53,396 nucleotides of DNA. Source: an uncultured Candidatus Saccharibacteria bacterium (GTDB taxonomy: Bacteria; Patescibacteriota; Minisyncoccia; 2-02-FULL-40-12; IGHO2-12-FULL-4). The notes beneath the pieces were generated by a model that did not search any database, was not told where the DNA came from, and saw only the letters and a list, made by a program, of their open reading frames with translations. Where the stretch lies: the NCBI GenBank assembly GCA_964580765.1, contig CAZOKW010000003.1, positions 1-53,396 on the forward strand, written 5' to 3'. This document shows, one piece after another, positions 5,932 through 49,291 of the stretch; the stretch's first letter is position 1; each line of letters starts with the position of its first letter. The position numbers were made by a program, and so were the translations under genes.

Positions 5932-6147
5932 TTGCCAGAAAAAGATATAAAACCAAAAACAGGGGGGACGGTTATTGAGGCATTGCCTGATACCACCTTT
6001 AAAGTACGGCTGGAAGACGGTCGGGAGATTTTAGCGTATTTATCAGGAAAAATGCGGATGAATTACATAAAAGTAATGATGGGAGATAGGGTCACTTTAG
6101 AATTAAGTCCGGACGGAACAAGAGGTAGAATTATTTTTAGAGGATGA
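5932..6147 (+). CDS. infA: translation initiation factor IF-1
   Basis: TTG start. S1-like sequence [44 protein letters not shown]...GRIIFR. Confidence 0.85.
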
Positions 6148-6257
6148 AAGTTAGAGCTTCTGTTAAAAAAATCTGTCGAAATTGTAAAATTGTCCGAAGA
6201 AAGGGCAAAATTTTTTGTATTTGTAAGAATAAAAAACATAAACAAAGACAAGGATAA
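6144..6257 (+). CDS. rpmJ: 50S ribosomal protein L36
   Basis: Hand translation gives [37 protein letters not shown] (37 aa). ATGA overlap with the infA stop and TAATG overlap with the rpsM start. Absent from the ORF track because it is under 60 aa. Confidence 0.85.
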
Positions 6258-6643
6258 TGGCACGAATTTCCGGGATGGTCATCCCAGACCATAAAAAAAT
6301 AAATATCGCTCTAACCTACATTTACGGCATCGGGCCTGTTTCCAGCCAACTGATTCTAAAATCGGCTGGCATTAATTCAGATAAAAAGGCCGCCGAATTA
6401 ACGGCCGAAGAAATAAATAAAATCCAAAATATCATTGATAAAAATTTCCAGGTGGGAGGAGAATTAAAACGGGAAATCGCCAAAAATATTCAGCGGCTAA
6501 GAGAAATCGGCTCTTGGCGCGGGATGCGGCATAGCCGCCGGTTGCCGATTCACGGTCGAACCAAAACAAATTCCCGTACCACCAGAGGCAACGTCAGAAA
6601 GACCATGGGCTCCGGACGCAAATCCTCAACCGAAAAGACTTAA
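6257..6643 (+). CDS. rpsM: 30S ribosomal protein S13
   Basis: [26 protein letters not shown]. Confidence 0.9.
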   Translation: MARISGMVIPDHKKINIALTYIYGIGPVSSQLILKSAGINSDKKAAELTAEEINKIQNIIDKNFQVGGELKREIAKNIQRLREIGSWRGMRHSRRLPIHGRTKTNSRTTRGNVRKTMGSGRKSSTEKT

Positions 6644-6651
6644 TTTTATAT

Positions 6652-7098
6652 ATGGGCAAAAAGCGCATAATAACTAAAGCAGAAGTTAAGGAAGAAACTT
6701 CAGCCGAAAAAAGCGGTCCGGTTTCTACTTCCAAAAAAGTGCTGAAACGTCAGGTTCTTAAAGGAATCGCCGCCATTTTTTCTTCTTACAATAATACTAT
6801 TGTTTCCATCACTGATCAGAAAGGGGAAGTGTTGTCCTGGTCTTCGGCCGGCTCGCTGGGATTTAAAGGCGCCAGAAAATCAACCCCTTATGCCGCCACG
6901 ATGGTCGCTAAAGAGGCCTTGGAAAAAGCCAAGAAATTCAATCTGTCTGAATTGGGAATTTCCGTCAAAGGAATCGGACCGGGGCGGGAAGCCGCTATCA
7001 GAGCCCTCGCTGGAACAGGATTGAACATAAACTCTTTGGTAGACAATACGCCTATTCCCCATGGCGGAGTGAGACCGCCTAAGCCGAGGAGAGTTTAA
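6652..7098 (+). CDS. rpsK: 30S ribosomal protein S11
   Basis: GIAAIFSSYNNTIVSITDQKGEVLSWSSAG...TPYAA. Confidence 0.9.
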   Translation: MGKKRIITKAEVKEETSAEKSGPVSTSKKVLKRQVLKGIAAIFSSYNNTIVSITDQKGEVLSWSSAGSLGFKGARKSTPYAATMVAKEALEKAKKFNLSELGISVKGIGPGREAAIRALAGTGLNINSLVDNTPIPHGGVRPPKPRRV

Positions 7099-7182
7099 GA
7101 AAGTTTATAGTCTAGAGTCATTAGTCAATAGAAAGAAATCTTTAAACTATGGCCTCTTGATTATAAACTGTAAACTATTTGT

Positions 7183-7818
7183 ATGGCACGATATACCGGA
7201 CCAAAAGAAAAATTAGAGAGACGCATCGGCACCAAGCTTTTTTTAAAAGGAGAGCGTTCCCTTTCCCCAAAATCAGCGACAGTTAGAAAACCCTATCCGC
7301 CCGGTATGCATGGCAAGGCTAAGTTTAAAAAATTATCGGAATATGGTCTTCAACTGCAATCCAAACAAAAAATTAAATATATTTACCGTCTTTTAGAAAA
7401 GCAGTTTAAGCGTTATGTCAAAGAGGCGATGAAGTCAAAAAAAGAAACTACCGCCCTGCTGATTAAGAACCTAGAAGAACGGCTAGACAATACGGTTTAC
7501 CGTATGGGACTGGCTCAATCCCGGGACCAAGCCCGTCAACTGGTCAACCATGGCCACATTTTGGTGAACAAAGTCAAAACAAATATTCCATCATTTAGAG
7601 TAAAAAAGGGGGACCAGATCAGTATCAGAGAAGGAAGTAAAAATACCAAATATTTTTCCGTTCTTCTGCCGGAGTGGTTCGCCAAACACGAAAGTCCGGA
7701 CTGGATTAAAGTAGAAAAAAACATCATGACAGGAACTATTGAGAAATCACCGGACATCAACAACAGCGGATTGGAATTTAAAGATATTCGGTCAATTATT
7801 GAATATTATTCAAAATAA
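7183..7818 (+). CDS. rpsD: 30S ribosomal protein S4
   Basis: MARYTGPKEKLERRIG... and the S4 domain LVNHGHILVN. Confidence 0.9.
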   Translation: MARYTGPKEKLERRIGTKLFLKGERSLSPKSATVRKPYPPGMHGKAKFKKLSEYGLQLQSKQKIKYIYRLLEKQFKRYVKEAMKSKKETTALLIKNLEERLDNTVYRMGLAQSRDQARQLVNHGHILVNKVKTNIPSFRVKKGDQISIREGSKNTKYFSVLLPEWFAKHESPDWIKVEKNIMTGTIEKSPDINNSGLEFKDIRSIIEYYSK

Positions 7819-7907
7819 AAATAAGTTATAAAGTTCATAAAGTTCATAAAGTAAAAAATTTTGACTTGATGGACTTGATAAACTTTATAACTTGATAAAC
7901 TAATATC

Positions 7908-8804
7908 ATGATTCAACTACCGGAAAAGTTATTAATTTTAAACGAAAAAGGAGATAAAATGACCTTTGAACTCTTACCTTTATATCCCGGTTACGGCATA
8001 ACCGTCGGCAATACTTTAAGAAGAATCCTTTTATCTTCCATAGAAGGCGCGGCCATTACTACCATTAAAATAAAGGGGGTCAGCCACGAATTCGCTACCA
8101 TTGAAGGCGTCTTGGAGAATGTCATTGAGATTATCATGAATATCAAGAAAATCAGATTGAAATCTTTCAACGAAGAACCGATAACTATGGAACTCAAGGT
8201 AAGCGGAGAAAAAGAAGTACTGGCTAAGGACATTAAAACAGGTCCGGATGTGGAGATAACCAACAAGGAACAGCTGATTGCCACTTTGACCAATAAGAAA
8301 GCGGAGTTAGAAATAGAATTAACCGTTGAGAAAGGCATCGGTTATGTACCAATCGAGCAAAGACAAAAAGAAAAAATTTCCGTGGGGACAATTGCCATTG
8401 ACGCCCTTTTCTCCCCCGTTAAAAACGCTAATTTTACTGTGGAAAATATCCGAGTTGGCCAAAGAACCGATTATAATAAGCTGGTATTTGAAGTGGAGAC
8501 AGATGGAATTATTTCACCAAGACAAGCAGTTCGGCAAGGATTGGACATCCTGTTAAAACATCTGGAAGTCATTGCCCAGGGATTGGGCAATGACGGTCAG
8601 GAATTGGCCAATAACGGTCAGGAATTGGGCACTAACAGTAGAGAATTGACCAATAACAGTAGAGAATTGGGCACCCCCGTACTCGCCTCGCCGAAGCCTC
8701 CGGCGGAGCGCGGGCCGGCCTTGACTTCCGTTAAGACGAAGTCCCCGGAGCCAAAAGTGGAGAAAGAGGAAAAGAAAGCGAAAAGAAAATCAAAAGAGAA
8801 ATAA
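7908..8804 (+). CDS. rpoA: RNA polymerase alpha subunit, NTD only plus repeat/lysine-rich tail
   Basis: The NTD reads GYGITVGNTLRRILLSSIEGAAIT. After about residue 225 there is no recognisable alpha-CTD, only 4 x 21-nt tandem repeats and a K/E/P-rich tail. Confidence 0.85.
   Translation: MIQLPEKLLILNEKGDKMTFELLPLYPGYGITVGNTLRRILLSSIEGAAITTIKIKGVSHEFATIEGVLENVIEIIMNIKKIRLKSFNEEPITMELKVSGEKEVLAKDIKTGPDVEITNKEQLIATLTNKKAELEIELTVEKGIGYVPIEQRQKEKISVGTIAIDALFSPVKNANFTVENIRVGQRTDYNKLVFEVETDGIISPRQAVRQGLDILLKHLEVIAQGLGNDGQELANNGQELGTNSRELTNNSRELGTPVLASPKPPAERGPALTSVKTKSPEPKVEKEEKKAKRKSKEK
8590..8673 (+). repeat. 4 x 21-nt in-frame tandem repeat in the rpoA 3' region
   Basis: caatgacggtcaggaattggc / caataacggtcaggaattggg / cactaacagtagagaattgac / caataacagtagagaattggg, encoding NDGQELA, NNGQELG, TNSRELT, NNSRELG. 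Confidence 0.8.
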
Positions 8805-8815
8805 ATTAATAATAG

Positions 8816-8899
8816 CCCTCCTGCGCTAAAGCTTCGGAAGGGCACTTCTTCGCTCTATGAAGAAATGCCTGCCCTGCGAAGCTCCGAAGGAGCGAAGAA
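8816..8899. repeat. family-3 (CCGAAGC) palindromic element in the rpoA-rplQ spacer
   Basis: ccctcctgcgctaaagcttcggaaggg plus the perfect 11-bp inverted repeat cttcttcgctc/gagcgaagaag. Its end gaaggagcgaagaaGTG supplies the SD for the rplQ GTG start. Confidence 0.55.
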
Positions 8900-9250
8900 G
8901 TGAAACACCATAAAAAAGGAAAAACTTTTGGAAGAGTAAGAAAACTGCGTGTGGCTTTAGTGCGGGATTTAATGCGCGCTTTGATAGAAAAAGAAAAAAT
9001 TATCACCACCGAGGCAAAAGCCAAAGCGCTGCGGCCAAAAATCGAAAAAGTTATCACCAGAGGAAAGCAAAAAAATATTTCCAATATAAGATTCCTGTCT
9101 TCGGAACTGGGCATGGGATTGGCCAAAAAAGTTTATGACACCTTATCTCCACGTTATCAAAATAGGGCGGGGGGATATACGAGAATTTTAAAAATAGCTC
9201 CCAGAAAAAGCGATAATTCCCTAATGGCTCTCATTGAATTCGTGAAATAA
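8900..9250 (+). CDS. rplQ: 50S ribosomal protein L17
   Basis: GTG start. GGYTRILKIAPR motif near the C-terminus. Confidence 0.85.
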   Translation: MKHHKKGKTFGRVRKLRVALVRDLMRALIEKEKIITTEAKAKALRPKIEKVITRGKQKNISNIRFLSSELGMGLAKKVYDTLSPRYQNRAGGYTRILKIAPRKSDNSLMALIEFVK

Positions 9251-9262
9251 TAACTAGCACTT

Positions 9263-9601
9263 ATGGAACACCAGATTGACGCCGCCAACCAAATATTCGG
9301 GCGATTAGCCAGTAAAGTGGCCGTAGTTTTGCGCGGAAAAAACAAAGCGTCATTTGATCCCGCTGTGATGCCCAAAGAAAAAGTGACCGTTTTTAATATT
9401 AACAAATTACGCTTCAGCGGAAAAAAAATGGCCCAGAAAGAATATAACCACTACTCCGGATATCCCGGAGGAATAAGAACCCGCTTTCTGGAAGAGGAAT
9501 GGGTCAAAAATCCTTCCAAAATTTTTCAGATGACCGTTTACCAAATGTTGCCTAAAAATAGATTGCGCGATAAAATTATAAAAAACTTAATTGTAAAATA
9601 G
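9263..9601 (+). CDS. rplM: 50S ribosomal protein L13
   Basis: IFGRLASKVAVVLRGKNK... typical L13 N-terminus. Confidence 0.85.
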   Translation: MEHQIDAANQIFGRLASKVAVVLRGKNKASFDPAVMPKEKVTVFNINKLRFSGKKMAQKEYNHYSGYPGGIRTRFLEEEWVKNPSKIFQMTVYQMLPKNRLRDKIIKNLIVK

Positions 9602-9607
9602 TTCAAA

Positions 9608-10123
9608 ATGGTCACAAAAGCCGCTAAAAAAAAGGTAGCAAAAAAGCTGGAGCAAAATCAGATAGCAGCCACAACCAGTCAAAGCGAGAAATACTATGAA
9701 GCGGTCGGCCGCCGCAAAAGCGCTATGGCCAGAGTCAGAATTTACACTAAAAAATCATCTGATTTGTCATTGTCGGAAAGTGAAAATGGAACAGAGAGCA
9801 AAGCCATGATTATCATTAATGATCAAGACCATGCCGATTATTTTCACCATAACGAAGAATTGCAAAACATTGCCGGAGCGCCTCTCAAGAAACTAAAATC
9901 CGTCAACCGTTTCAAGACCACTGTAAAAGTATCCGGCGGCGGAATTCACGGACAAGCCGAAGCGATTCGTCACGGTTTAGCCAGGGCCTTAATACTATTT
10001 GATCCCAATTTTGCTAAAAAACTAAAAAAGTCCGGTTATCTTACCAGGGATTCGCGAGAAAAAGAACGCCGAAAGTATGGATTAAAAAAAGCCCGCAAAG
10101 CCCCGCAGTGGGCCAAACGTTAA
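9608..10123 (+). CDS. rpsI: 30S ribosomal protein S9 with lysine-rich N-terminal extension
   Basis: YYEAVGRRKSAMARVRI, GGGIHGQAEAIRHGLARAL and the C-terminal KKARKAPQWAKR. Confidence 0.85.
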   Translation: MVTKAAKKKVAKKLEQNQIAATTSQSEKYYEAVGRRKSAMARVRIYTKKSSDLSLSESENGTESKAMIIINDQDHADYFHHNEELQNIAGAPLKKLKSVNRFKTTVKVSGGGIHGQAEAIRHGLARALILFDPNFAKKLKKSGYLTRDSREKERRKYGLKKARKAPQWAKR

Positions 10124-10148
10124 AAAAATCCCTCTAGGGATTTTTTTA
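10123..10148. terminator. bidirectional rho-independent terminator between rpsI (+) and the PEGA gene (-)
   Basis: aaaaaaatccctctagggattttttt: a perfect hairpin flanked by an A-run and a T-run. Confidence 0.7.
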
Positions 10149-10228
10149 ACGTTCACATGTCGACATATCGAAATTTAGAAACACCAGCCACTACGGCATA
10201 TCAATTAAAGCCAGGCCGCTTAAATTAC

Positions 10229-11488
10229 TCATTTTATCGTGTAGCGATTGTGAGCATCGCGAGAATCAATTTCAATAACTTCTAACCCTTTTTCTAATTC
10301 CAAAAAGGCATAGTTGCTGTTCTTGTACCAACTTAATCCGCGAATATTTTCAGATACACTGGCCACCATTTCTCTTTCTCCGGCTTTTTTCAGAGGTTGA
10401 TATTCTGTATCTTTAAGCCACTCAATCCAAAACTCATGCCTATTGCGCCAGCCCAGAATAGAATTATCCGGCGAAACAGCAAATCCTTCAGCGTTATTGG
10501 AAAGCAAAATCAGTTCTCCATTTTTTAAAGAATAAAGATGGGAACCGATAAGCGCATAATAAGACCCGTTTTTACTCTCTATTTGTTTAATAACTGGCTT
10601 TACGAAAGAGCCCAGTTCAGCTAAAATCTGTCTATTTTCTCCGTTCCAACCCATTTTTAGTAATTGGCGGGGAGGGTTGGTAACGGCATATACTTCATTT
10701 CCGACAGCCAAAAAGGAGGCCAAATTTTTAGATAGAACAATACTTTTCAAATTATCCACCGAAAAACTGATAAGCTCATTCTTGCCACCGACTGACTGTT
10801 TGGGCGATGGTTTCAAAAAGTAAATCCGGCCGTTGTTTAATGCGGCAGTTCCCAGGTGATATGGCTTGGGAGAACCGATATCGCGAAAAGTTTTTTTATT
10901 CAAATCGAAATAAACAGTTCGGGATGTGTCAAAGGCCAAGGCCTCTTTTCCATTTAAACCCCAGATAATTCCCAAAGTGGCTGGGTCAAAAAGCAAGGAC
11001 TCGCTTTTATAAATAAGCTGGTTACTGTCCATTTCATAAAAACTAAGAGCGTCCTTTCCCAAGTAAGCGGTTTTATGCAATGCCCGGTTAACAAAAAGAA
11101 TATCCGCCTGATCATTCAGAGTCCGCTCAATTTGTCCTTGGCTGAATAAAACAATCCTGGAAAAATCACTGACCAAACCCTCTGCAACTTCAATCTCTTT
11201 TTGCCAAGAGAAATAACCCTCCCTCTGCACTCTGACAGTATAGATACCCGGCAAAAGCTGTTTTTTAGAAAAAGAACCACTCAAAAAAGAAGTATGGCCC
11301 TCCAGTTTATCATTAATAAAAACCTGCGCTTCCGTATTTGATTTTATCACCAAAGAACCAGTTTTAACCAAGCGGTTATTTTGAAAATCATACCGAAAGC
11401 CAAAAGCCAGAGTTAATACTAAAACGCTTAGGCAAATAAAAACAGCCACCGCCCATATAAACAAAATGCGTCTGCTTTGTCTGGTCAT
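10229..11488 (-). CDS. membrane-anchored PEGA-domain protein, probable beta-propeller C-terminal region
   Basis: N-terminal TM helix ILFIWAVAVFICLSVLVLTLAF. PEGA-like segment LVIKSNTEAQVFINDKLEGHTS. The remainder is hydrophilic and repeat-like. Confidence 0.5.
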   Translation of the reverse strand: MTRQSRRILFIWAVAVFICLSVLVLTLAFGFRYDFQNNRLVKTGSLVIKSNTEAQVFINDKLEGHTSFLSGSFSKKQLLPGIYTVRVQREGYFSWQKEIEVAEGLVSDFSRIVLFSQGQIERTLNDQADILFVNRALHKTAYLGKDALSFYEMDSNQLIYKSESLLFDPATLGIIWGLNGKEALAFDTSRTVYFDLNKKTFRDIGSPKPYHLGTAALNNGRIYFLKPSPKQSVGGKNELISFSVDNLKSIVLSKNLASFLAVGNEVYAVTNPPRQLLKMGWNGENRQILAELGSFVKPVIKQIESKNGSYYALIGSHLYSLKNGELILLSNNAEGFAVSPDNSILGWRNRHEFWIEWLKDTEYQPLKKAGEREMVASVSENIRGLSWYKNSNYAFLELEKGLEVIEIDSRDAHNRYTIK

Positions 11489-14537: not shown

Positions 14538-15512
14538 ATGTCACCTCGTGTTTTTATAATCATTCTCCAGTACAACCATTCCCAAGACACTATTAAGTGC
14601 CTTGATTCGGTTGGGAAATTGACCTACCCCAACTTTCAAACAGTTGTCGTGGACAATGCTTCTCAAAGTTCTGAAAAAGATAATATCAAGAACTACATAA
14701 AAAGTCAAGGCAACATTGTTTTGCTCGAAAATGAAAAAAATTTGGGATACGCCGGAGGAAATAATACCGGAATAAAATACGCTTTAGCCCATGGCGCGGA
14801 TTATGTTTTCATTTTAAATAACGACACGACTGTTCCGCCGGACTTACTTGAGAAATTGGTAAACGAAGGGGAAAGTGACTCTAAAATTGGAATAGTGGGA
14901 CCGGCCATCAAAGAAGGGGATGGGCGAATCGCTTACTACGGAAAAATCTCCTGGCTCAAAGCAGAACTGAAACATGTCTATGGAAAATCAGCCATACACC
15001 TACTCGAAAATTCCCGAGCGACAAGTCGAGGGTCGAGAGTGGGTGGTATGGCTGATTTTCCCGATCGAGTACGAGTATTAGGGCCGAAAGAATATGTCAT
15101 CGGGGCGGGAATGCTTATCAAAAAAGAGGTACTGGAAAAGATAGATGGTTTTGATGAGGTTTACTTTCTATATTTTGAAGATGCCGACCTCTGTCTGCGC
15201 GCCCAATTAGCCGGTTATAAGCTCAAAATTGCCCCAGAAACAATGATTTATCACCAAGGAGCCGCCAGCACCTCTACTCTTGGCAAACCGCTACTTTTAC
15301 GGTACCATATGAGGAACGCTCTGATTTTTAACTCGCTCAACGCGCCTTGGCCAGTTAAGTTTAGTTTAATCTTCTGGTCCAGCTACATTTTACTGAAAAA
15401 CTTTTTGAAAGTTTTTCTTTTGCCATCCAAAGTAACGGCCGGAGAAGCCATCATTGACGGCGTGCTGGATTTTTATAAAAACAACTACGGAAAAATAAAT
15501 ACTCCCAATTAA
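14538..15512 (+). CDS. GT2-family glycosyltransferase with an in-frame family-2 element insertion
   Basis: VVDNASQ, GYAGGNNTG and EDADLCLRAQLAGYKL motifs. The frame is maintained across the 14985-15058 insert, which encodes KSAIHLLENSRATSRGSRVGGMADF. Confidence 0.75.
   Translation: MSPRVFIIILQYNHSQDTIKCLDSVGKLTYPNFQTVVVDNASQSSEKDNIKNYIKSQGNIVLLENEKNLGYAGGNNTGIKYALAHGADYVFILNNDTTVPPDLLEKLVNEGESDSKIGIVGPAIKEGDGRIAYYGKISWLKAELKHVYGKSAIHLLENSRATSRGSRVGGMADFPDRVRVLGPKEYVIGAGMLIKKEVLEKIDGFDEVYFLYFEDADLCLRAQLAGYKLKIAPETMIYHQGAASTSTLGKPLLLRYHMRNALIFNSLNAPWPVKFSLIFWSSYILLKNFLKVFLLPSKVTAGEAIIDGVLDFYKNNYGKINTPN
14985..15058. mobile_element. family-2 RPE-like palindromic element, copy 1, in-frame in the GT2 gene
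   Basis: aaatcagccatacacc...ctcgaaaattcccgagcgacaagtcgagggtcgagagtgggtgg...tatggctgattt with a terminal 16-bp imperfect inverted repeat. Confidence 0.7.
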
Positions 15513-15520
15513 TTAAATTG

Positions 15521-15691
15521 CTAGCTTTCGTTCAAATATGACCGATTGGCTGCAAATTACCGAAGCGGAGTGAAAATTTGGCCGGTAGATTAAAATTCGG
15601 TCCGACTCTTGGAGGGGTACTGAATTTTAGTCGGCAAATTGAGCAAAGCGAGGATAATTTGTCCAAGAGGACATCTTGAAAAGAGAGCTGG
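15521..15691 (+). ncRNA. candidate structured element SE, copy 1, upstream of the GT4 gene
   Basis: Near-identical to 34399-34589 over about 160 nt (ttcaaatatgNNcgattgg...ggaggggtactgaattttagtcggcaaattga...gcgaggataatttgtccaagagg.catcttgaaaagaga). It ends 17 nt before the ATG at 15709. Confidence 0.4.
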
Positions 15692-16875: not shown

Positions 16876-18749
16876 TGCGAGAGGCTCCGGTGGACATACT
16901 TTTGTTCGACGGCGCTACAGGGATTCCGCAACGGGCCACTGCAGACATTGTGGCTACCGTTGCGGAACCTTCCATGCGACACAAAAGTGTCCCCACTCCG
17001 CCTCTGGTAAATATGTTTAAACACTTTGATACTCTTAAAAAACCAGTTAATGTCATCTTCCTAGTCCAAATTGTGGTCGTCTTTTTGGTGGCCTTCGGTG
17101 TCTGGCCAAGAACACTGATAATTCCTTTGACGGCCTTAATCGCCATTTTTATTTTACGAGCCGATTTGGAAACATCCGCTTCTTTTTTTATCCGCTCCAT
17201 ACCACTTTTCGTGGCCATTCCTTTTACCTCTTATTTTGATTCTTTCAATATCTGGCGAATCGCCGGGGGATTGATTTTTTTGAAATGGTTTTATCAATCG
17301 TACAAAGAAAGGATAAGAATAGCGGGCAAATCAGCCATACACCTACTCGAAAATTCCCGAGGAGATTCTATGGGCGGGCTAAAGCACCGCCCACCAGAAA
17401 CTTCTCCTGACAGCGACAGTCGAGGGTCGAGAGTGGGTGGTATGGCTGATTTGCTAGTCATAAAAATTAAAAAATATCCTTTAGCGTCTTTGTTAACGAC
17501 TTTTCTTTTACTTTCCACCCTATCCCTTCTAGCCGCCGAAGATATTTTTACTGGAATCAAAAGAATAATTTATTTAATCAATTTGAGTTTAGTTCCTCTA
17601 GTCGTTTACGACTTGATTAAAAAAAAACCCGCCCTCATCAAAAAGTTCTTAGATAGCATTTTGATTTCTGGAGTAATCGTGGCCGGAGTCGGCATCACCC
17701 AGTTAGTCAGCGCTTACTTAATGCCTTTGGGCGCTTTTCTGGATTTTTGGGGAGGTACGGTTCAGCTTGGCTTTTATGGCTCACAGTGGTCCAGTATCGC
17801 TTTAGAAGGGAACACTTGGTTTGCCTACTTCGGCGACCAACTATCTTTGCGAATTTTTTCAACTTTTACGGACTCTCACTCTTTTCCGGTTTACCTTTTA
17901 ATGACAATTCCAGCTCTCTTGGCTTTAGCTAAACTCACTTGGAAACGGGGTTTCCAAGTGAGTGGAATCGTTCTCCTTGTCTTGTATCTTCTGATTATCC
18001 TAAGCGGCACCCGAGGAATATGGTTAGCCGTTTTAGGACCTTTACTGGCTTGGCCGGTTTTAGTTAATTTTCTAAAAAGGGATGGGGGGAGTTTAGAAAA
18101 AAGTTTGTTAAAAAAACTCGGATTGCTCCTTTTGCCATTTTTTCTTCTTTTCGCCGCCGCTTTTCCTATTATGGGCTCGGACCAATTCTGGGTTGAAAAA
18201 GAAAATAATCAAATTCTGGCCAAACGGATTCGTTCCGTTCTCGATTTGAACGAGACATCAAATAGTGGACGGGTAGAAATCTGGAAAAAAACGGTCAAAT
18301 CAATTATTCACCGTCCGCTCCTGGGGGTGGGGATTGGTAACTTTCCAACTGTTCTTTCTCAGCATACTGACTTGGCCAAAGCCGGCTCTTCTGCGCATAA
18401 TCTCTATCTCCATATTGCCGCCGAAATCGGCCTAGTCGGGCTTTTAGCCGCTTTAGGTATTTTGTTCATAATTTTAAAAAGAAGTTGGGATGTTTTCCGA
18501 AGAGCCAATCAGCCACACCCCCACTCGAAAATTCCCGAGCGAGGAGTCGGGGGTCGAGAGTGGGTCGGTGTGGCTGATTGGCTCACTATTAAAACCTACG
18601 CTGCCGCTTTTGTCCTTTACAGTTTGTGGGTTTTGTTTTACTCTTTAACGGATGCGATAATGTTTGACGAGCGCGTTTTTCTCGTTTTTGCCATTAATTC
18701 AGCCGTTATTTTAGGTCTATATAAAACAAAATCCGCCTTAGCGGATTAA
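16875..18749 (+). CDS. O-antigen ligase (Wzy_C)-like polytopic membrane protein, with two in-frame family-2 element insertions
   Basis: Many TM helices. HNLYLHIAAEIGLVGLL Wzy_C-like motif. The start is uncertain because the first 40 codons overlap a family-1 remnant. Confidence 0.6.
   Translation: MREAPVDILLFDGATGIPQRATADIVATVAEPSMRHKSVPTPPLVNMFKHFDTLKKPVNVIFLVQIVVVFLVAFGVWPRTLIIPLTALIAIFILRADLETSASFFIRSIPLFVAIPFTSYFDSFNIWRIAGGLIFLKWFYQSYKERIRIAGKSAIHLLENSRGDSMGGLKHRPPETSPDSDSRGSRVGGMADLLVIKIKKYPLASLLTTFLLLSTLSLLAAEDIFTGIKRIIYLINLSLVPLVVYDLIKKKPALIKKFLDSILISGVIVAGVGITQLVSAYLMPLGAFLDFWGGTVQLGFYGSQWSSIALEGNTWFAYFGDQLSLRIFSTFTDSHSFPVYLLMTIPALLALAKLTWKRGFQVSGIVLLVLYLLIILSGTRGIWLAVLGPLLAWPVLVNFLKRDGGSLEKSLLKKLGLLLLPFFLLFAAAFPIMGSDQFWVEKENNQILAKRIRSVLDLNETSNSGRVEIWKKTVKSIIHRPLLGVGIGNFPTVLSQHTDLAKAGSSAHNLYLHIAAEIGLVGLLAALGILFIILKRSWDVFRRANQPHPHSKIPERGVGGREWVGVADWLTIKTYAAAFVLYSLWVLFYSLTDAIMFDERVFLVFAINSAVILGLYKTKSALAD
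16878..16918. repeat. truncated family-1 hairpin element (half copy, minus orientation)
   Basis: gaggctccggtggacatacttttgttcgacggcgct matches the left half of the reverse-oriented copy at 36301-36380. Confidence 0.4.
17328..17452. mobile_element. family-2 RPE-like element, copy 2, with a 50-nt internal insertion
   Basis: Same termini aaatcagccatacacc / ggtatggctgattt. The extra internal hairpin is gggcgggctaaagcaccgccc. It is in-frame in the ligase gene. Confidence 0.65.
18505..18581. mobile_element. family-2 RPE-like element, copy 3
   Basis: ccaatcagccacacc / ggtgtggctgattgg is a perfect 15-bp terminal stem with paired compensatory changes (atac to acac, gtat to gtgt). It is read in a different frame from copy 2 within the same ligase gene. 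Confidence 0.65.
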
Positions 18750-25546: not shown

Positions 25547-26344
25547 TTATCTTATCCGGCTCAACCAGAATTGGTTTTCCCACTCCCAAAGAGTTTTGCA
25601 AGCCAAAAAAGCGGAAAAATCATGATTCTGACCGGGCAATTCTTTCAGCTCCGCTTCTCCGACCATTTCACTCCATTGGTGTTGGCAATTTTTTCCTTTG
25701 CCCTCCGAAGCTTTACTGTGTCCGTCCGAAGCGCTTCGCGAAGGAGGAGCGTAGGAGGGGACTCTTATCTTAGGTGTACCGCCCTTCAAACGCAAAGTAG
25801 CCGGACAATTTAAGCATTTATGGTGCTGGTCCAAACGCAATATCCAGCGGGTCATAGAAGAGGGAAGGCCATTTTCTATCAAGGCCTCCACATAAGCAGC
25901 GGTCTGGATGCCATAATCCCTATAAATGGAATAGGAAGTTTTAATATCTAAAACTCCAAGTTGGCCGTTCACTTCCGCCAAGACATCCAAAGTGCCGGAG
26001 TAGCGGTGCTTTTTACTGACTAATCTTTCCTCGATCTGTTTGGCCGAGACCTGGTTGTGATTTAGAAAATTCATAAAAGCGTCAATAACCGGGCGGATGT
26101 TTTCCGGAATGACCGGCTGCCGGCCGCTTAAAATCGCCTCAACCGTTTCGTGAATTAAAGTTCCTTCTTCCGCCGATTTAGCCTTCATCGCTTCCCCGGC
26201 TTCAAAACTTTCCTGCTCCGCATAAAATTTATAAAGCCCCGGCTTAGCTTTCATGGAAACAATTTGAGTAACCCGCGGATACCAAAAACCATCAATGGTA
26301 TAACCGGAAGCCATCTTAAAATCTTCTAGAGTCCGATAAAACAT
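25547..26344 (-). CDS. PD-(D/E)XK nuclease, Cas4/RecB-exonuclease-like, with an embedded family-3 element
   Basis: GTLDVL...LGVLDIKTS...YGIQTAAY (D, EXK and QxxxY motifs). C-terminal Cys cluster HHKCLNCP...C, interrupted by the element at 25700-25760 that encodes APPSRSASDGHSKASEG. Confidence 0.55.
   Translation of the reverse strand: MFYRTLEDFKMASGYTIDGFWYPRVTQIVSMKAKPGLYKFYAEQESFEAGEAMKAKSAEEGTLIHETVEAILSGRQPVIPENIRPVIDAFMNFLNHNQVSAKQIEERLVSKKHRYSGTLDVLAEVNGQLGVLDIKTSYSIYRDYGIQTAAYVEALIENGLPSSMTRWILRLDQHHKCLNCPATLRLKGGTPKIRVPSYAPPSRSASDGHSKASEGKGKNCQHQWSEMVGEAELKELPGQNHDFSAFLACKTLWEWENQFWLSRIR
25700..25760. mobile_element. family-3 (CCGAAGC) palindromic element inside the Cas4-like gene
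   Basis: gccctccgaagctttactgtgtccgtccgaagcgcttcgcgaaggaggagcgtaggagggg. The central cgaagcgcttcg is a perfect palindrome. It matches 32380-32439. Confidence 0.65.
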
Positions 26345-30065: not shown

Positions 30066-31397
30066 TTATAGGTAATCTAATGGATTTATTGAACCTTCAA
30101 AATAGTTAAAATATAACTGGCCGTTTTTTTCGTTGATATAAGTAAAGAAATCTTTATAAACACTTAGATGTAAATGGGAGCCGGTGGAATTTCCGGTAGA
30201 CCCCTCATAACCGATAACATCACTGGCCGTAACCGCCAAACCATTAACCAAACCGGAAGGAGCGCGCAGATGAGCGTAAACACTGACCAATCCGCCATTG
30301 TGCCGCACAGCCACCCAATGGCCGAAACCATCGTTAAACCCGCTGGCCAAAATATTTCCGGCGGCCATCGGATGAATGGCCGTACCATAACCGCCCGCCA
30401 AATCAATCCCGTTATGAGGAGCGCCACCATAAGGTTTTCGTCTGGAACGGGCATAAGCGGTATATCCGTAACCTTGGGTAATGTGATATTCATCTTCCGG
30501 CCATTGAAAAATTTTAGTTCCCCGCGGAGGAACCGCATCAGCCGTCACATGTACGATAAAAGCCCCAGACTGCAAGGCCTGATCTTCCAAATTCTTTAAT
30601 TCCGCGAAAAACTCCGCTTCTTTCTTCTCCGTTTCCGCCAGTAATTTTTGATACTCCGCCTCCTGCCCCTTGGTCCTGACCAAAAGATTGTTCTTGTTCG
30701 ATTTGGTGCCGCTTAAAGCCACCTGCTGATTCTTCTGTGAATTATTCAACTTTTCCAAATCCTGTTTTTTTATTTCCAGTTCGGTCTTATTTTCTTCCAG
30801 TTCTTGGCGTTCGTTTTTTAAAACAGTAATGGCGGCCAACAAACTCTTGTTTAAATTATCGGCCTGCTTGGCTTGATCCAAAAAATCGGAAAGGTGGTTA
30901 TTTTTCAACAAAATAGCCAGCCAGTTTTCCCGGTCGTTTTGATACATCATTTTCAGTAAACTGCCCACCGTATCTTGACGATTTTTGATCTTTTCGTGCC
31001 GGTCAAAAATTTTATCGCGCAAATCCCCGATTACCAACTGTGTAGAGGAAATCTTATTTCCGGTTATTCTGACTTCCGTTTCCAACCGGCTGATCTGATT
31101 GGTCAAAACGCTTATTTCTTTTTGTAAACTAGTCGCCTCCTTTTGCTTGCCGGAAACAACTTTTTTATATTCATCTGATTTCTTTTGCAGTTCTTCCAAC
31201 TGTTTTCTCAAGTCCAATATTTTCTGATTGACATCTTCCGCCGCCAATCCAGATCCGGAATAAAAAAAGAAAGAGAAGAAAACGACCAGGCAAATCAGCC
31301 ATACACCTACCTGAAAACTCCCGAGCGACAAGTCGAGGGTCGAAGGTAGGTTGTATTGCTGATTTGCTAAAAATTTACTTTTGAATTGCTTTTTCAA
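30066..31397 (-). CDS. M23 family metallopeptidase with coiled-coil region (EnvC-like)
   Basis: Long coiled-coil. C-terminal HNGIDLA...GSTGNSTGSHLHLSV M23 motifs. The N-terminal 35 codons are encoded by the family-2 element copy at 31292-31365. Confidence 0.7.
   Translation of the reverse strand: MKKQFKSKFLANQQYNLPSTLDLSLGSFQVGVWLICLVVFFSFFFYSGSGLAAEDVNQKILDLRKQLEELQKKSDEYKKVVSGKQKEATSLQKEISVLTNQISRLETEVRITGNKISSTQLVIGDLRDKIFDRHEKIKNRQDTVGSLLKMMYQNDRENWLAILLKNNHLSDFLDQAKQADNLNKSLLAAITVLKNERQELEENKTELEIKKQDLEKLNNSQKNQQVALSGTKSNKNNLLVRTKGQEAEYQKLLAETEKKEAEFFAELKNLEDQALQSGAFIVHVTADAVPPRGTKIFQWPEDEYHITQGYGYTAYARSRRKPYGGAPHNGIDLAGGYGTAIHPMAAGNILASGFNDGFGHWVAVRHNGGLVSVYAHLRAPSGLVNGLAVTASDVIGYEGSTGNSTGSHLHLSVYKDFFTYINEKNGQLYFNYFEGSINPLDYL
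31292..31365. mobile_element. family-2 RPE-like element, copy 4, antisense within the 5' end of the M23 peptidase gene
   Basis: aaatcagccatacacctacc...cccgagcgacaagtcgagggtcgaaggtaggttgtattgctgattt. Confidence 0.6.
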
Positions 31398-32835
31398 TTC
31401 TAGTAAGTGTTTTATCTCGTCCTAATATACCCATAATCTGCACCGGATCGGGAGAAAACTTCTCTCCGCTTAAAGCCACCCGCAAAGGCCAATAAACCGC
31501 CCCTCTGTCTCCGCCGAATTCTTTTTCGGCCAATTGATCCAACTCGGAACGAATATATTTCTCATCAAAAATCTCCCACTCAGTTTTGCTTTCCAAAATT
31601 TCTTTAGCTAATTCTAGGGCCTTTTTTGCCCCCTCCTTATCCGATTTTTTCCAGACCAGTAAATCAGATTCGTACTCCGGCTCGACAAAGAAAAACTTAA
31701 ATTCTTTAACCTGCTCAAAATGTTCTAATCGCTCCCGCAACATCGGCGCTATTTTGATAATTTTTTCATTGGCCTGCTCTCCAAAATATTTTTCCACAAA
31801 GTGTTTGGCTGCTTCGGCCAGTCCCTCGTCGTTGAACATTTTAATATACTGCGAGTTAACCCAGTTTAATTTTTTGATATCAAAAATCGCTCCGCTTTGA
31901 TGAACTTTTTCTAAACTAAACTGCTCAATAATTTCATTCTTGGTTAGTATCTCTCTGTCTCCCTCCGAACTCCACCCCAACGCCGCCAAAAAATTCACCA
32001 TGGCCTCCGGCAGATAACCAGACTCTTTGTAAAAAGAAAAATCAGTTGATCCGTGTCGTTTGGAAAGCTTGGAACGGTCCGCCCCCAAAAGCAAAGGCAA
32101 ATGGGCAAATTGTGGGACCGGCGCTCCCAACGCTTCGAAAATTAGAATTTGTTTGGGAGTGTTGGAAATGTGGTCTTCGCCACGAATGACATGACTTATT
32201 TGCATTTCATAGTCGTCCACCGCCACGGCAAAATTGTAGAGCGGAGTTTGCAGGTTTTTCGCCAAACTCAAATCCCCCACCACTTTCTGCTCAAACTCAA
32301 TATGACCCCGAACCGCGTCTTCAAAATGAATAATTCTGGTCGAATTTTCATCTACCGCCAATCTAATGATCCCTGGCTTGCCCTCCGAAGCTTTACTGTG
32401 TCCGTCCGAAGCGCTTCGCGAAGGAGGAGCGAAGGAGGGATATTTATGTTCGCAAATATGGCGTGGCGCTTCTTTTTTGGTCATCTGCTCCTCTTTTTCT
32501 TTATTTAGTTCCTCAATGGAGTGATAGCACCAAAAGGCCTTTTTCTCTTCCAAAAGTTTTTGTAAATATTTTTCATAGAGGGCCGACCGTTCACTGGAAC
32601 GATAAAACTCATCCCATTTTAAACCCAGCCACTCCAAACCGGACATGATGCTTTTCTCAAATTCGGATCTTGATCTTTCCTTGTCGGTATCCTCAATTCG
32701 TAAAATAAATTCACCGCCATGGTGGCGGGCAAAAAGCCAATTATACAAAGCCGATTGAGCTGTGCCCACATGTAAATTCCCCGTCGGCGAAGGCGCCACC
32801 CTAGTCCGAATTTTTAGCTTTTGAACTTTAGTCAT
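31375..32835 (-). CDS. gltX: glutamyl-tRNA synthetase with an in-frame family-3 element insertion
   Basis: RVAPSPTGNLHVGTAQSALYNWLFARHHGG and KLSKRHG class-I motifs. The insert EHKYPSFAPPSRSASDGHSKASEGK precedes the conserved PGIIRLAV. Confidence 0.85.
   Translation of the reverse strand: MTKVQKLKIRTRVAPSPTGNLHVGTAQSALYNWLFARHHGGEFILRIEDTDKERSRSEFEKSIMSGLEWLGLKWDEFYRSSERSALYEKYLQKLLEEKKAFWCYHSIEELNKEKEEQMTKKEAPRHICEHKYPSFAPPSRSASDGHSKASEGKPGIIRLAVDENSTRIIHFEDAVRGHIEFEQKVVGDLSLAKNLQTPLYNFAVAVDDYEMQISHVIRGEDHISNTPKQILIFEALGAPVPQFAHLPLLLGADRSKLSKRHGSTDFSFYKESGYLPEAMVNFLAALGWSSEGDREILTKNEIIEQFSLEKVHQSGAIFDIKKLNWVNSQYIKMFNDEGLAEAAKHFVEKYFGEQANEKIIKIAPMLRERLEHFEQVKEFKFFFVEPEYESDLLVWKKSDKEGAKKALELAKEILESKTEWEIFDEKYIRSELDQLAEKEFGGDRGAVYWPLRVALSGEKFSPDPVQIMGILGRDKTLTRIEKAIQK
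32380..32439. mobile_element. family-3 (CCGAAGC) element inside gltX
   Basis: gccctccgaagctttactgtgtccgtccgaagcgcttcgcgaaggaggagcgaaggaggg, differing at 1 of 60 positions from 25700-25759. Confidence 0.7.
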
Positions 32836-34398: not shown

Positions 34399-34589
34399 AG
34401 TACCCACCCATCTTTTTTCAAATATGGTCGATTGGTTGCAAATTACCGAAGCGGAGTGAAAATTTGGCCGGTAGATTAAAATTCGGTCCGACTCTTGGAG
34501 GGGTACTGAATTTTAGTCGGCAAATTGAACGGAGCGAGGATAATTTGTCCAAGAGGGCATCTTGAAAAGAGAGGGGTGGGGACGGAGCT
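34399..34589 (+). ncRNA. candidate structured element SE, copy 2, upstream of fmt
   Basis: About 95% identical to copy 1. The 5' end gtacccacccatcttttttcaa is complementary to the 3' end cttgaaaagagaggggtggggac. It ends 9 nt before the fmt ATG. Confidence 0.4.
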
Positions 34590-35512: not shown

Positions 35513-36301
35513 ATGACTGAAAAATCACCGGACCTGCCCTTCCGAAGCTCCGATTTATCCTTCGAAACTTTAGTGAAGGAGGAAGGAGCGAAGGAGGGAA
35601 AAATATTGGAAGTTAAGGACTTGGCTGTCTCTTTTGACAGTTTTAATGTTTTTCATGACATCTCTTTTGAACTGGCCCGCGGAGAAGTGATGGCGGTAGT
35701 CGGACCGAACGGCTCCGGAAAGACGGTTTTATTCCGGGCGCTTTTGAAATTAATTCGTTATCAAGGCGCGGTAATCTGGAACAAGGACATCAAGATTGGC
35801 TATGTGCCCCAAAAACTTTTTGTGGATAGCCAATTCCCCGTCAGCGTCGGTGACTTTTTTAAATTCAAAACTAAATCCAAGGAAGCCATGACAGAGGCCC
35901 TAAATTCCGTTGGTTTCAGCGAAGATTTTGAACATCTCAAACATCATGTCTTAAACAAAAAGTTAGGAGCGCTTTCTGGAGGACAACTCCAAAGAGTCCT
36001 GATTGCCTGGAGCATCATCAACAAGCCGGACATCCTTCTTTTTGACGAACCGACTTCCGGTATCGATATCGGCGGAGAAGAAACTATTTACAACCTCCTG
36101 CACAAACTCCAAGCCAGTTCCCACTTAGCGCTCATTTTAATTTCGCACGACCTGAATATTGTTTACAAATATGCCGATAAGGTTTTATGCCTTAACAAAG
36201 AAGCAATTTGCTACGGCCCCCCGCATGAAGTATTAAATACTGCCAATTTAAGCCAGCTCTACGGAGGAGAAACAAAATTTTACGAACACAAACATGAGTA
36301 G
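35513..36301 (+). CDS. ABC transporter ATP-binding protein (ZnuC/MntB-like)
   Basis: Walker A GPNGSGKT, signature LSGGQLQRV, Walker B LLFDEPTSGID. The first 30 codons are a family-3 element. An alternative TTG start at 35606 has AGGAGG 8 nt upstream, supplied by the element. Confidence 0.75.
   Translation: MTEKSPDLPFRSSDLSFETLVKEEGAKEGKILEVKDLAVSFDSFNVFHDISFELARGEVMAVVGPNGSGKTVLFRALLKLIRYQGAVIWNKDIKIGYVPQKLFVDSQFPVSVGDFFKFKTKSKEAMTEALNSVGFSEDFEHLKHHVLNKKLGALSGGQLQRVLIAWSIINKPDILLFDEPTSGIDIGGEETIYNLLHKLQASSHLALILISHDLNIVYKYADKVLCLNKEAICYGPPHEVLNTANLSQLYGGETKFYEHKHE
35535..35598. mobile_element. family-3 (CCGAAGC) element at the 5' end of the ABC ATPase gene
   Basis: gcccttccgaagctccgatttatccttcgaaactttagtgaaggaggaaggagcgaaggaggg. 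Confidence 0.55.
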
Positions 36302-37824: not shown

Positions 37825-38409
37825 TTAGATTACTTTTTTGCGTCTAAGAAATAACAAAGACAAAAGCGGGACAAAAGACCAGATAAAAGAGGCCGGCGGC
37901 CAAGCTAAATATTTCCTTATTACGGGATAGGAATTAAAAATAGAGTTATCAAAAGGAGGCGCATAAGAAATAATAATTGACAGCCAAAAGATTCCTTGCA
38001 GAATACTTAAGAAGAGAATAGTCATCGGCGGGGATTCTTGTAAAGACATCTTCGGTCTTAAAATCGAGCGGTTCAAGATCAAAACGGAAATGATGAAGAA
38101 AATTACAAAAATCAGGAGACGGGCCCAAAATATGGCCGGCAGGTTTAGAAAATCGCCAAAAAATTTAGCCAGTTCCAGCCGATAAATAAAGGTTGATTCC
38201 AGAAAAGCGGAAATATAAGTGGCCAATAGAGCCAGAACGATCTTGGTTTTACCAAAACTCAAAGCAATCAAAAAGATCACCAAAAGAAAAAACAAGAAAA
38301 ACAAACTGCCGCCACTGGTGACAGTTGAACTCATCAGGCCGTCCAGCCCGCTGAAATTTTTAGAAAAACTTCCGACAGAAGATAGGATTTTGATTAAAAA
38401 TTCCTGCAT
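37825..38409 (-). CDS. hypothetical polytopic membrane protein (CvpA-like topology)
   Basis: Four or more hydrophobic helices. Last gene of the minus-strand heat-shock operon. Confidence 0.45.
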   Translation of the reverse strand: MQEFLIKILSSVGSFSKNFSGLDGLMSSTVTSGGSLFFLFFLLVIFLIALSFGKTKIVLALLATYISAFLESTFIYRLELAKFFGDFLNLPAIFWARLLIFVIFFIISVLILNRSILRPKMSLQESPPMTILFLSILQGIFWLSIIISYAPPFDNSIFNSYPVIRKYLAWPPASFIWSFVPLLSLLFLRRKKVI

Positions 38410-42624: not shown

Positions 42625-42737
42625 GTTTGCTTCGCAAACTAGTTTATAAAGTTCGTAAAGTTCTTCAAGTTTATCAAGTAAGATTCTTTTTCAACTTCTT
42701 TACTTTATAAACTTGATGGACTTTATAACTTGATAAA

Positions 42738-43493
42738 CTAATTTAACTCGTTCATTTTTTTTGTTATGTATTTTAACAAAGATAGATTTCTGTGATAAGC
42801 CATGCGCATCGGCCCAATGACGGCCGAGACACCTTCATGCCCCTCCGGCAACGGATAGCGGGCAATAATTATGGCCTCTTTTTGAGTATGCTTATGGGGA
42901 TTTTCCCGGCCAATATAGACCACTAATTCTTTGGGGCCTTGTCCCAAAAACTGACTGAAATAATTTTCAAATTCATCAAAGATATTTCCAAAACCGAAAA
43001 AGTCATCCCTCTCCCTCGCCTCGCTGGAGCTCCGGCGAAGCGGGTCGAACTCCGGCGATTCCAAAATATTGGAAAACCCCATGCGATAAAATTCGTTGGT
43101 GTCGGCAAGACCGCTAATCACAAAATCATCCACCAGGTTAGACATGGTTTTGGCCAAACCGGAACTGATGGCATGCGCTTCACGGGGAGAATGCTCAATG
43201 GCCCGGTCAATCGCTCGGCGGTCCTGCGCCGGCAAGTCGCCGGTTTTTTCTTTTTCCTGAAGCAATTTATCCACAAAAAAACGGTAGGCCTTGTCGGTTG
43301 GCACCCGCCCGGCGGAAGTATGGGGCTGGCGAAGATAACCATCCTTTTCCAATCCCATCATCTCCGCCCGCAAAGTGGCCGGACTGCAGTCAAACCCGCA
43401 TTTTTCCGCCAAAAAACTTGAGCTGATTGGTTCGGCCTTTTTGACATATTCTTTAATTAAGACCTGGAGTATTTCCTCCTGCCTGGAAGTCAT
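42738..43493 (-). CDS. hrcA: heat-inducible transcription repressor HrcA
   Basis: N-terminal winged-helix ILQVLIKEYVKKAEPISSSFLAEKCGFDCSPATLRAEMMGLEKDGYL. Sits directly upstream of clpB. Confidence 0.85.
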   Translation of the reverse strand: MTSRQEEILQVLIKEYVKKAEPISSSFLAEKCGFDCSPATLRAEMMGLEKDGYLRQPHTSAGRVPTDKAYRFFVDKLLQEKEKTGDLPAQDRRAIDRAIEHSPREAHAISSGLAKTMSNLVDDFVISGLADTNEFYRMGFSNILESPEFDPLRRSSSEARERDDFFGFGNIFDEFENYFSQFLGQGPKELVVYIGRENPHKHTQKEAIIIARYPLPEGHEGVSAVIGPMRMAYHRNLSLLKYITKKMNELN

Positions 43494-49032: not shown

Positions 49033-49291
49033 GTCCCACCCACCTTCTTTTCAAATATGAGCTCGCCGGCATAAATAAACGAAGATTTCTGAAATCAAGC
49101 CGGTAATAAAAATTGGGTCCGATGGTTTCGAGGGGTACTGAATTTTTGTCGGCTTGATGCGGTTAAAGTGAATTGTTTCACTTTAACCCCGAATTTTAGT
49201 CCGAGCTCCTGCGAGGACGTTAGGAAATTCGGAAAACCTTTTTATTGGCACGGCGAGTGATTCTTGAAAAGAGGTGGGTGGGGACGGAGCG
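49033..49291 (+). ncRNA. candidate structured element SE, copy 3 (divergent, with an extra internal hairpin), upstream of dnaB
   Basis: Shares ttcaaatatg, gccgg, ggtccga...gaggggtactgaatttt.gtcggc, gcgagga and cttgaaaagagg with copies 1 and 2. The 5' end gtcccacccaccttcttttcaa pairs with the 3' end cttgaaaagaggtgggtggggac. The inserted perfect hairpin is gttaaagtga/tcactttaac. Confidence 0.4.

Follow-up and report, generated by a model that had tools for sequence, protein, structure and literature searches.

An RNA polymerase alpha subunit from Patescibacteria that lacks its C-terminal domain and ends in a conserved lysine-rich tail

We found that the rpoA gene of an uncultured Patescibacteria bacterium encodes an RNA polymerase (RNAP) alpha subunit that consists of the N-terminal domain (alpha-NTD) followed by a disordered tail and that lacks the C-terminal domain (alpha-CTD). 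The gene lies at 7908..8804 on the + strand of a 53,396-nucleotide stretch of DNA (contig CAZOKW010000003.1; the whole stretch is called the window below). The alpha-NTD dimerizes, scaffolds the beta and beta' subunits and by itself supports core assembly and basal transcription; textbooks give the alpha-CTD, which binds UP elements and serves class I activation, as the site at which UP elements and many activators dock. We are highly confident that the loss of the alpha-CTD is real and lineage-wide. When the explanation is extended to include a basic tail that tethers the enzyme to DNA, a naturally CTD-less alpha subunit is still the account that we favor, with moderate confidence.

The gene is an open reading frame (ORF) of 298 amino acids (aa) between rpsD and rplQ, in an alpha operon that the ORF list gives as infA-rpsM-rpsK-rpsD-rpoA-rplQ-rplM-rpsI. 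The rpsM-rpsK-rpsD-rpoA-rplQ order recurs, with Pfam labels, in three contigs: L206, an ENA contig that is 100% identical to the window over positions 5959-10804 (4.8 kb), L085 and L207. A public protein that is 100% identical to the window RpoA (P0001, named 'Parcubacteria group bacterium Gr01-1014_44') is annotated from Met18; the true start is at 7908, because the first residues, MIQLPEKL, are conserved in relatives. The only Pfam matches in the protein are PF01193 (E=1.6e-23, residues 24-219) and PF01000 (E=1.1e-33, residues 53-169), and in an AlphaFold model run with a 23-sequence alignment, most residues as far as ~230 have a per-residue confidence (pLDDT) of 70-96, and the last NTD helix spans 204-227. 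We therefore place the alpha-NTD, the dimerization and assembly domain, at residues 1-228 (7908..8591, + strand), in agreement with PDB alignments: chains of 229-242 aa that carry the label E. coli alpha align to residues 21-222, and all solved bacterial alpha chains align only to residues up to 232. The protein passes the bacterial equivalog cut-offs of NF003519 (281.3 bits vs 277) and TIGR02027 (264.8 vs 227.8); both profiles align only residues ~13-234 and stop at profile positions 237/320 and 218/298. The archaeal and eukaryotic assembly-platform subunits Rpo3 (RpoD) and Rpb3/AC40 are homologous (PF01193/PF01000) and also have no alpha-CTD-type domain, but the window protein is not of the archaeal subunit D type, which we rejected on a score of 31.2 bits against a cut-off of 153 (NF001988), and unlike that subunit it passes the bacterial cut-offs and sits in a bacterial ribosomal protein operon. 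By its NTD, its scores and its synteny, the window protein is a member of the RpoA family, and the initial annotation was right to call the gene rpoA and to describe its dimerization and assembly domain as clear.

What the window RpoA does not have is the helix-hairpin-helix CTD on a flexible linker (PF03118) that is a feature of the family. The initial annotation had likewise seen no recognizable alpha-CTD and had named a profile search for a divergent one as the test that could overturn this; the search came out negative in three ways. PF03118 was not found in the window RpoA by Pfam search even at E<=10. When we compared the tail, which is ~70 residues long, with a profile built from the alpha-CTDs of related CTD-bearing Patescibacteria, hhalign gave no match (probability 0.1%). 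A hidden Markov model (HMM) from the same alpha-CTDs was run in six frames over 1.27 Mb, made up of the window and 80 related loci. In the window and in the loci with a short rpoA, no match had an E-value below ~0.4, and as a positive control all 38 long forms were recovered at E<=2e-18. Residues 231-298 have pLDDT values of 30-37 in the AlphaFold model and no secondary structure. Immediately 3' of rpoA lies rplQ (L17; 8900..9250, + strand; PF01196 on the counterparts in L206, L084 and L085), whose start is separated from the rpoA stop by 95 nt, so that there is no room at that place for a detached alpha-CTD.

To place this architecture among relatives, as had been proposed with the original observation, we looked at several samples, and the loss proved to be clade-wide. 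All of the 120 best database matches to the window RpoA are proteins of 203-281 aa that carry only the two NTD Pfam domains; an NTD-only architecture is the norm in the Yanofskybacteria-like Parcubacteria lineage. In a scan of one genome per species, 78 of 80 rpoA loci could be evaluated, and these divide into 40 short forms (232-286 aa) and 38 long forms (305-347 aa) with a canonical helix-hairpin-helix CTD. The long forms (Portnoybacteria, Nomurabacteria, Yonathbacteria, Doudnabacteria, Azambacteria, Staskawiczbacteria and others) have an NTD 46-60% identical to that of the window protein, the same operon position and an E/K-rich segment after the NTD; in contrast to the window RpoA, they keep an alpha-CTD of ~66 aa. 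Among the nearest 150 representatives of 50%-identity clusters, the NTD is present in all and PF03118 in 91. Of the 59 representatives without PF03118, ~20 are apparently genes called with a frameshift or cut short, and 26 have a strongly basic end.

In a neighbor-joining (NJ) tree of the NTD, several groups of short forms are interspersed with long forms: the window with a Yanofskybacteria clade, a Paceibacteria clade, a Nealsonbacteria subgroup that adjoins a long-form Nealsonbacteria, a Uhrbacteria-like group and two singletons. Fitch parsimony requires at least 6 state changes in 200 of 200 bootstrap NJ trees, with a mode of 8-9 as compared to ~26 for random labels. Because regain of the domain is implausible, this pattern is best read as repeated loss of the alpha-CTD within Patescibacteria, with an approximate number of independent events.

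The library of cluster representatives also holds fused alpha subunits. P0122 (526 aa) has diverged halves arranged as NTD-NTD-CTD, a single-chain alpha dimer with one CTD, and P0185 (664 aa), also with diverged halves, is arranged as NTD-CTD-NTD-CTD. The two halves of a third candidate, P0121 (569 aa), are identical; we rejected it as a tandem NTD-NTD-CTD fusion and regard it as a probable assembly artefact.

The part of the tail that is conserved is its end, the Lys-rich segment KVEKEEKKAKRKSKEK (8754..8801, + strand), as seen from the alignment with relatives and from its net charge. An alignment of 22 relatives has a common plan of NTD, a short, variable and often acidic linker, and a conserved Lys-rich end, EKxxKKxKKKxKK, which is aligned in 22/22 sequences and in which K289 is nearly invariant. 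The last 12 residues have a net charge of at least +4 in 33 of 41 short forms, and such ends are kept across at least 6 separate short-form groups; in contrast, a 12-residue window with this charge occurs anywhere in the linker in only 9 of 38 long forms. Within the window, 4 of 45 ORFs end with a net charge of at least +4, namely RpoA, the ribosomal proteins S11 and S9 and ORF 37825-38409. Six CTD-less alpha subunits (P0083, P0128, P0194, P0205, P0206 and L079) carry an AT-hook-like K(K/R)RGRPKK terminus, as compared to 0 of 129 CTD-bearing ones. Short, disordered and strongly basic C-terminal segments of this kind are known from the AT-hooks of HMGA and from the Lys/Ala/Pro-rich tails of actinobacterial HupB and topoisomerase I. 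From sequence alone, the alpha tails can be likened to such AT-hook or histone-H1-like DNA-binding tails; the six relatives share the K/R-flanked RGRP core, and the window tail has no GRP core.

We tentatively suggest that the conserved basic end of the flexible tail contacts upstream DNA non-specifically and electrostatically, as a minimal substitute for the CTD tether; in some relatives this end might have been sharpened to the AT-hook-like RGRP form. More tentative still is the general version of this proposal, in which a large share of Patescibacteria would have no alpha-CTD after many independent losses, and a short basic tail, convergently retained or evolved and an AT-hook in some, would hold A/T-rich upstream DNA without sequence specificity.

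Between the NTD and the conserved end, the window tail contains two segments of its own. The first is an in-frame 21-nt tandem repeat of 4.6 copies (8577..8673, + strand; residues 224-256; Tandem Repeats Finder (TRF) score 106, 83% matches) that is translated as QGLGNDG / QELANNG / QELGTNS / RELTNNS / RELGT. These are the heptads of the four 7-aa repeats described earlier after residue ~225, in a shifted register, and the last NTD helix extends into the first unit. We aligned the DNA with that of two relatives, at about 75-81% overall identity: L085 has 1 copy of the unit, L084 has 2 and the window 4.6. The repeat is thus a native Q(E/G)LGNNG-coding unit of the NTD boundary that slippage has expanded in this genome. 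The second is a GC-rich in-frame insert that codes for the Pro-rich segment TPVLASPKPPAERGPALTSVKTKSPEP (8674..8753, + strand), which is present, like the terminal KVEKEEKKAKRKSKEK, as first described. About 90 nt of GC-rich sequence here are found in the window rpoA only and not in L084 or L085, and the insert holds the peak 60-nt GC content of the window (77% vs a mean of 43.5%). As a self-folding palindrome, the ~110-nt segment was rejected (z = +0.65 vs shuffles): only its ~30-nt core forms a conserved hairpin. Despite ~190 nt of extra sequence (repeats and insert), translation still runs in frame into the basic end. Judged from these alignments, the tail is a mosaic with three parts: a 21-nt unit expanded by slippage, a hairpin element inserted in frame, and the conserved Lys-rich end. 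The first description, in which the CTD was replaced by repeats, does not hold: L084 and L085 have 1-2 units and lack the GC-rich insert, so a short disordered tail was already there, to which this genome added the repeats and the Pro-rich segment.

Several observations weigh against a DNA-tethering tail. The window tail, which ends in KVEKEEKKAKRKSKEK, has no GRP core and so is not an AT-hook, defined as K/R-flanked Gly-Arg-Pro. The interdomain linkers of long forms are also E/K-rich, so that the basic tail could be a neutral remnant. In L083 (3-700), a long-form rpoA has an in-frame stop within the Lys-rich linker (...EEEKKKEESGKK*KKGYLEE...), followed by an intact alpha-CTD ORF and rplQ; a single stop in the linker would give a Lys-rich end without selection. 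The stop in L083 could itself be a sequencing error, and from its sequence it is either that or a snapshot of CTD loss. The NJ tree was made by a simple method from a single domain of 218 columns, which makes the count of independent losses approximate.

A mutation that turns a Lys codon of the Lys/Glu-rich interdomain linker into a stop (AAA/AAG to TAA/TAG) would be a likely route of loss and would leave an NTD with a Lys-rich end. It is conceivable, if somewhat doubtful, that the history stopped there: the CTD would have been lost with nothing in its place, and the Lys-rich tail would be the neutral remnant of a stop-truncated E/K-rich linker with no role in DNA binding. The composition of long-form linkers, 9 of 38 with a 12-residue window of at least +4, fits this, as do the '...EEEKKKEESGKK' end that the L083 stop leaves, the disorder of the tail and its tolerance of repeat expansion and element insertion. 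Such a remnant does not by itself account for basic ends being much commoner in short forms (33/41) than comparable windows are in long linkers, for their rarity among the other proteins of the window, or for their retention in at least 6 separate short-form groups. The RGRP end on six tails, never seen in long forms, and the survival of the frame into the basic end through ~190 nt of insertions also speak against neutrality.

An improbable alternative is a split alpha subunit, in which a functional alpha-CTD, free or RNAP-bound, would come from a separate gene elsewhere in the genome. Our search for a detached domain covered the 53-kb window and, in relatives, 10 kb to either side of rpoA, and thus part of the genome, and short PF03118-only proteins do exist in the database. 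However, within that range a nearby detached alpha-CTD is ruled out, with no such domain in any frame of the window or the short-form loci. When we searched a 5.8-billion-protein collection with the CTD profile, we found 36 short PF03118 proteins, nearly all on contigs <5 kb, and no stand-alone alpha-CTD gene family on long contigs. We inspected three PF03118-only proteins, all from low-coverage or fragmented contigs; each is flanked by a fragment of an rpoA NTD on one side and by rplQ on the other, and we therefore identify them as broken or split long-form rpoA genes. An artefact or pseudogene, in which a frameshift, misassembly or truncation took the CTD from a normal rpoA, is very improbable. 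The sequence does come from a metagenome-assembled genome, and the tail has repeats and a compositionally odd insert, but all 120 of the closest relatives, which come from many samples, and 40 species representatives also have an NTD with a basic tail, the sequence agrees fully with that of a second assembly record, the insertions preserve the reading frame, and rplQ starts 95 nt past the stop with no CTD remnant in any frame. That the tail is a highly divergent yet intact alpha-CTD, for which nothing speaks beyond its position and ~70-aa length, can be dismissed on the Pfam, hhalign and AlphaFold results, and recent repeats and an element insertion, which relatives at about 75-81% identity do not have, account for half of its length.

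In domain content, the naturally CTD-less window RpoA matches two engineered proteins, E. coli alpha(1-235) and B. subtilis RpoA-del, which are also NTD-only. The E. coli and B. subtilis truncations are laboratory constructs without a basic tail; in contrast, the window form is natural and lineage-conserved, and so is its basic tail. Truncated E. coli alpha, in work of 1991 by Igarashi and Ishihama and by Hayward and colleagues that PMC11434276 cites, reportedly assembles core enzyme and supports basal transcription. As the sole copy, a CTD truncation is reported to be non-viable in E. coli (PMC11434276). In B. subtilis, truncated alpha enters an RNAP that binds DNA and elongates, and transcription of UP-element- and activator-dependent genes, and of genes for ribosome synthesis and secondary carbon sources, is reduced (PMC4495994). 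By analogy with these alpha-CTD roles in E. coli and B. subtilis, UP-element-dependent and alpha-CTD-dependent activation would be lost in the organisms described here. A CTD-less polymerase could not read UP elements through the alpha-CTD, activators that dock on this domain could not recruit it, and transcription would then depend on sigma-promoter contacts and on regulators that act elsewhere. These organisms probably control transcription differently from textbook bacteria.

Recent comparative work treats the alpha-CTD as present in all bacteria (PMC12531629; PMC4495994), and we found no description of natural alpha-CTD loss in bacteria, the candidate phyla radiation (CPR)/Patescibacteria included, in the full-text literature, the searchable part of which is incomplete. 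If the loss is as we describe, UP-element reading and class I type activation would be absent from these bacteria and the alpha-CTD would not be universal in bacterial transcription. If a major radiation has lost the domain naturally and more than once, then bacteria can do without it when genome and lifestyle allow, the transcription apparatus that is left would count as a minimal bacterial one, and CPR promoters and regulators would be expected to function with no alpha-CTD contacts. The presence of short and long forms among close lineages would offer a ready comparative system, and annotation pipelines and evolutionary analyses based on the alpha-CTD should not presume the domain.

The insert in the tail is a separate lead, on selfish DNA inside essential genes; its core belongs to a dispersed GC-rich hairpin element that is apparently translated there. 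The core, CTCGCCTCGCCGAAGCCTCCGGCGGAGCGCGGG, lies at 8682..8714 (+ strand), where it is read as LASPKPPAERG, and was recognized by motif matches, folding and dispersal. A second window copy lies inside hrcA (43015..43044, - strand; motif match, HrcA domain by Pfam), where it is read as DPLRRSSSEARE. The core motif CTCGCCTCGCYGRAGC(N)TCCGGCGRAGCGGG has 3 matches in the window at these two loci, the rpoA tail and the opposite strand of hrcA, with 0 expected. The core also matches exactly at least 120 times in public metagenome contigs (loci L086-L165 among them), many of which come from groundwater samples; the flanks differ from copy to copy and often extend the stem. We analyzed 77 distinct copies, nearly all of which fold into the same bulged hairpin. 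The core matches no Rfam family, and we found no literature on the element, with the searchable literature being incomplete.

Of these copies, 46 of 77 lie in stop-free frames of at least 150 aa, and all six reading frames are used. By Pfam, the host proteins comprise FtsK (with the element in the motor-gamma linker), RpoB, TopA (topoisomerase I), MnmA, HsdS, HrcA, a Mur-ligase/FolC-type enzyme and the products of two ArgS genes, in which the sites differ. In L144 (1465-2049, - strand), S11 (rpsK) has an N-terminal extension of ~60 aa with two inverted copies of the element (...PASPELQRGEPQPPAERGPTKVEKKAKG...), and this extension shares the reading PPAERGP with the window RpoA tail. The element is dispersed, multi-copy and able to form a hairpin, and it appears from these sequences to be often inserted in frame, and apparently translated, in housekeeping genes; absence from orthologues was shown for rpoA only (L084, L085). 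Its presence marks the alpha tail as a permissive, unstructured site. By analogy, the Rickettsia palindromic elements and the GC clusters of yeast mitochondria are also short dispersed palindromes that enter coding sequences in frame and are translated; the hairpin core, at ~30 nt much shorter than the Rickettsia elements with their 100-150 nt, resembles them in behavior. A G variant at core position 13 is found in 10 of 46 copies inside long ORFs vs 1 of 31 outside. We rejected this as proof of selection against a TGA stop, as the comparison is partly circular: stop-containing copies are not scored as coding. We also rejected the element as a general feature of Patescibacteria, with no copies (<=3 substitutions) in 1.25 Mb of named Patescibacteria loci, and protein comparison with the window gave no identification of its carriers.

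One element-carrying contig, L133 (2-3799), has a stop-free frame of 1266 aa in which RpoB domains (Rpb2_3, Rpb2_6, Rpb2_7) are directly followed by RpoC domain 1, which suggests a fused rpoB-rpoC gene. The hairpin element in L133 lies near the RpoB N-terminus.

Both spacers that flank rpoA are enlarged by palindromic elements. Upstream, the rpsD-rpoA spacer contains an AT-rich palindrome of 9-nt tandem units (7822..7894, + strand; TRF; inverted repeat I9, 86% complementary; RNA fold z = -6.25), in which AAGTTCATA is repeated x3.4 and then ACTTGATAA x4.3. A second copy is found at 42636-42751, between a ClpB-like gene and hrcA. The palindrome is also present in the rpsD-rpoA spacer of L207 (661-753; ~85% NTD identity) and is absent from L084 and L085; candidate explanations are a hairpin with a regulatory role, an array of protein-binding sites and a small mobile element. 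A scan for sigma-70 and terminator consensus sequences around rpoA gave nothing above the shuffled expectation.

Downstream, the rpoA-rplQ spacer (8805-8899) is 95 nt long as compared to 8-18 nt, or overlapping genes, in relatives. It was described initially as filled by a palindromic element, and we found there a structured GC-rich palindrome with two hairpins (8815..8901, + strand; RNA fold -35.5 kcal/mol, z = -3.2). The 3' arm of a 13-bp stem (8889-8901) covers the GGAG and the GTG start of rplQ, and the element may lower rplQ translation or steady the 3' end of rpoA; that the spacer elements affect the relative expression of rpoA and rplQ is speculation. Loose relatives of the downstream element lie at 25698-25759, 32378-32439 and 35535-35603; they are GC-rich imperfect palindromes that have TGCCCTCCGAAGCT...GGAGCGAAGGAGGG in common, and the copies at 25698 and 32378 are 98% identical.

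The window also contains a 157-nt direct repeat, 96% identical, at 15531-15687 and 34417-34573 (18.9 kb apart), with a shorter third match at 49127-49153. Other repeat families are located at 14982-15058, 18503-18579, 31289-31365 and 17310-17452.

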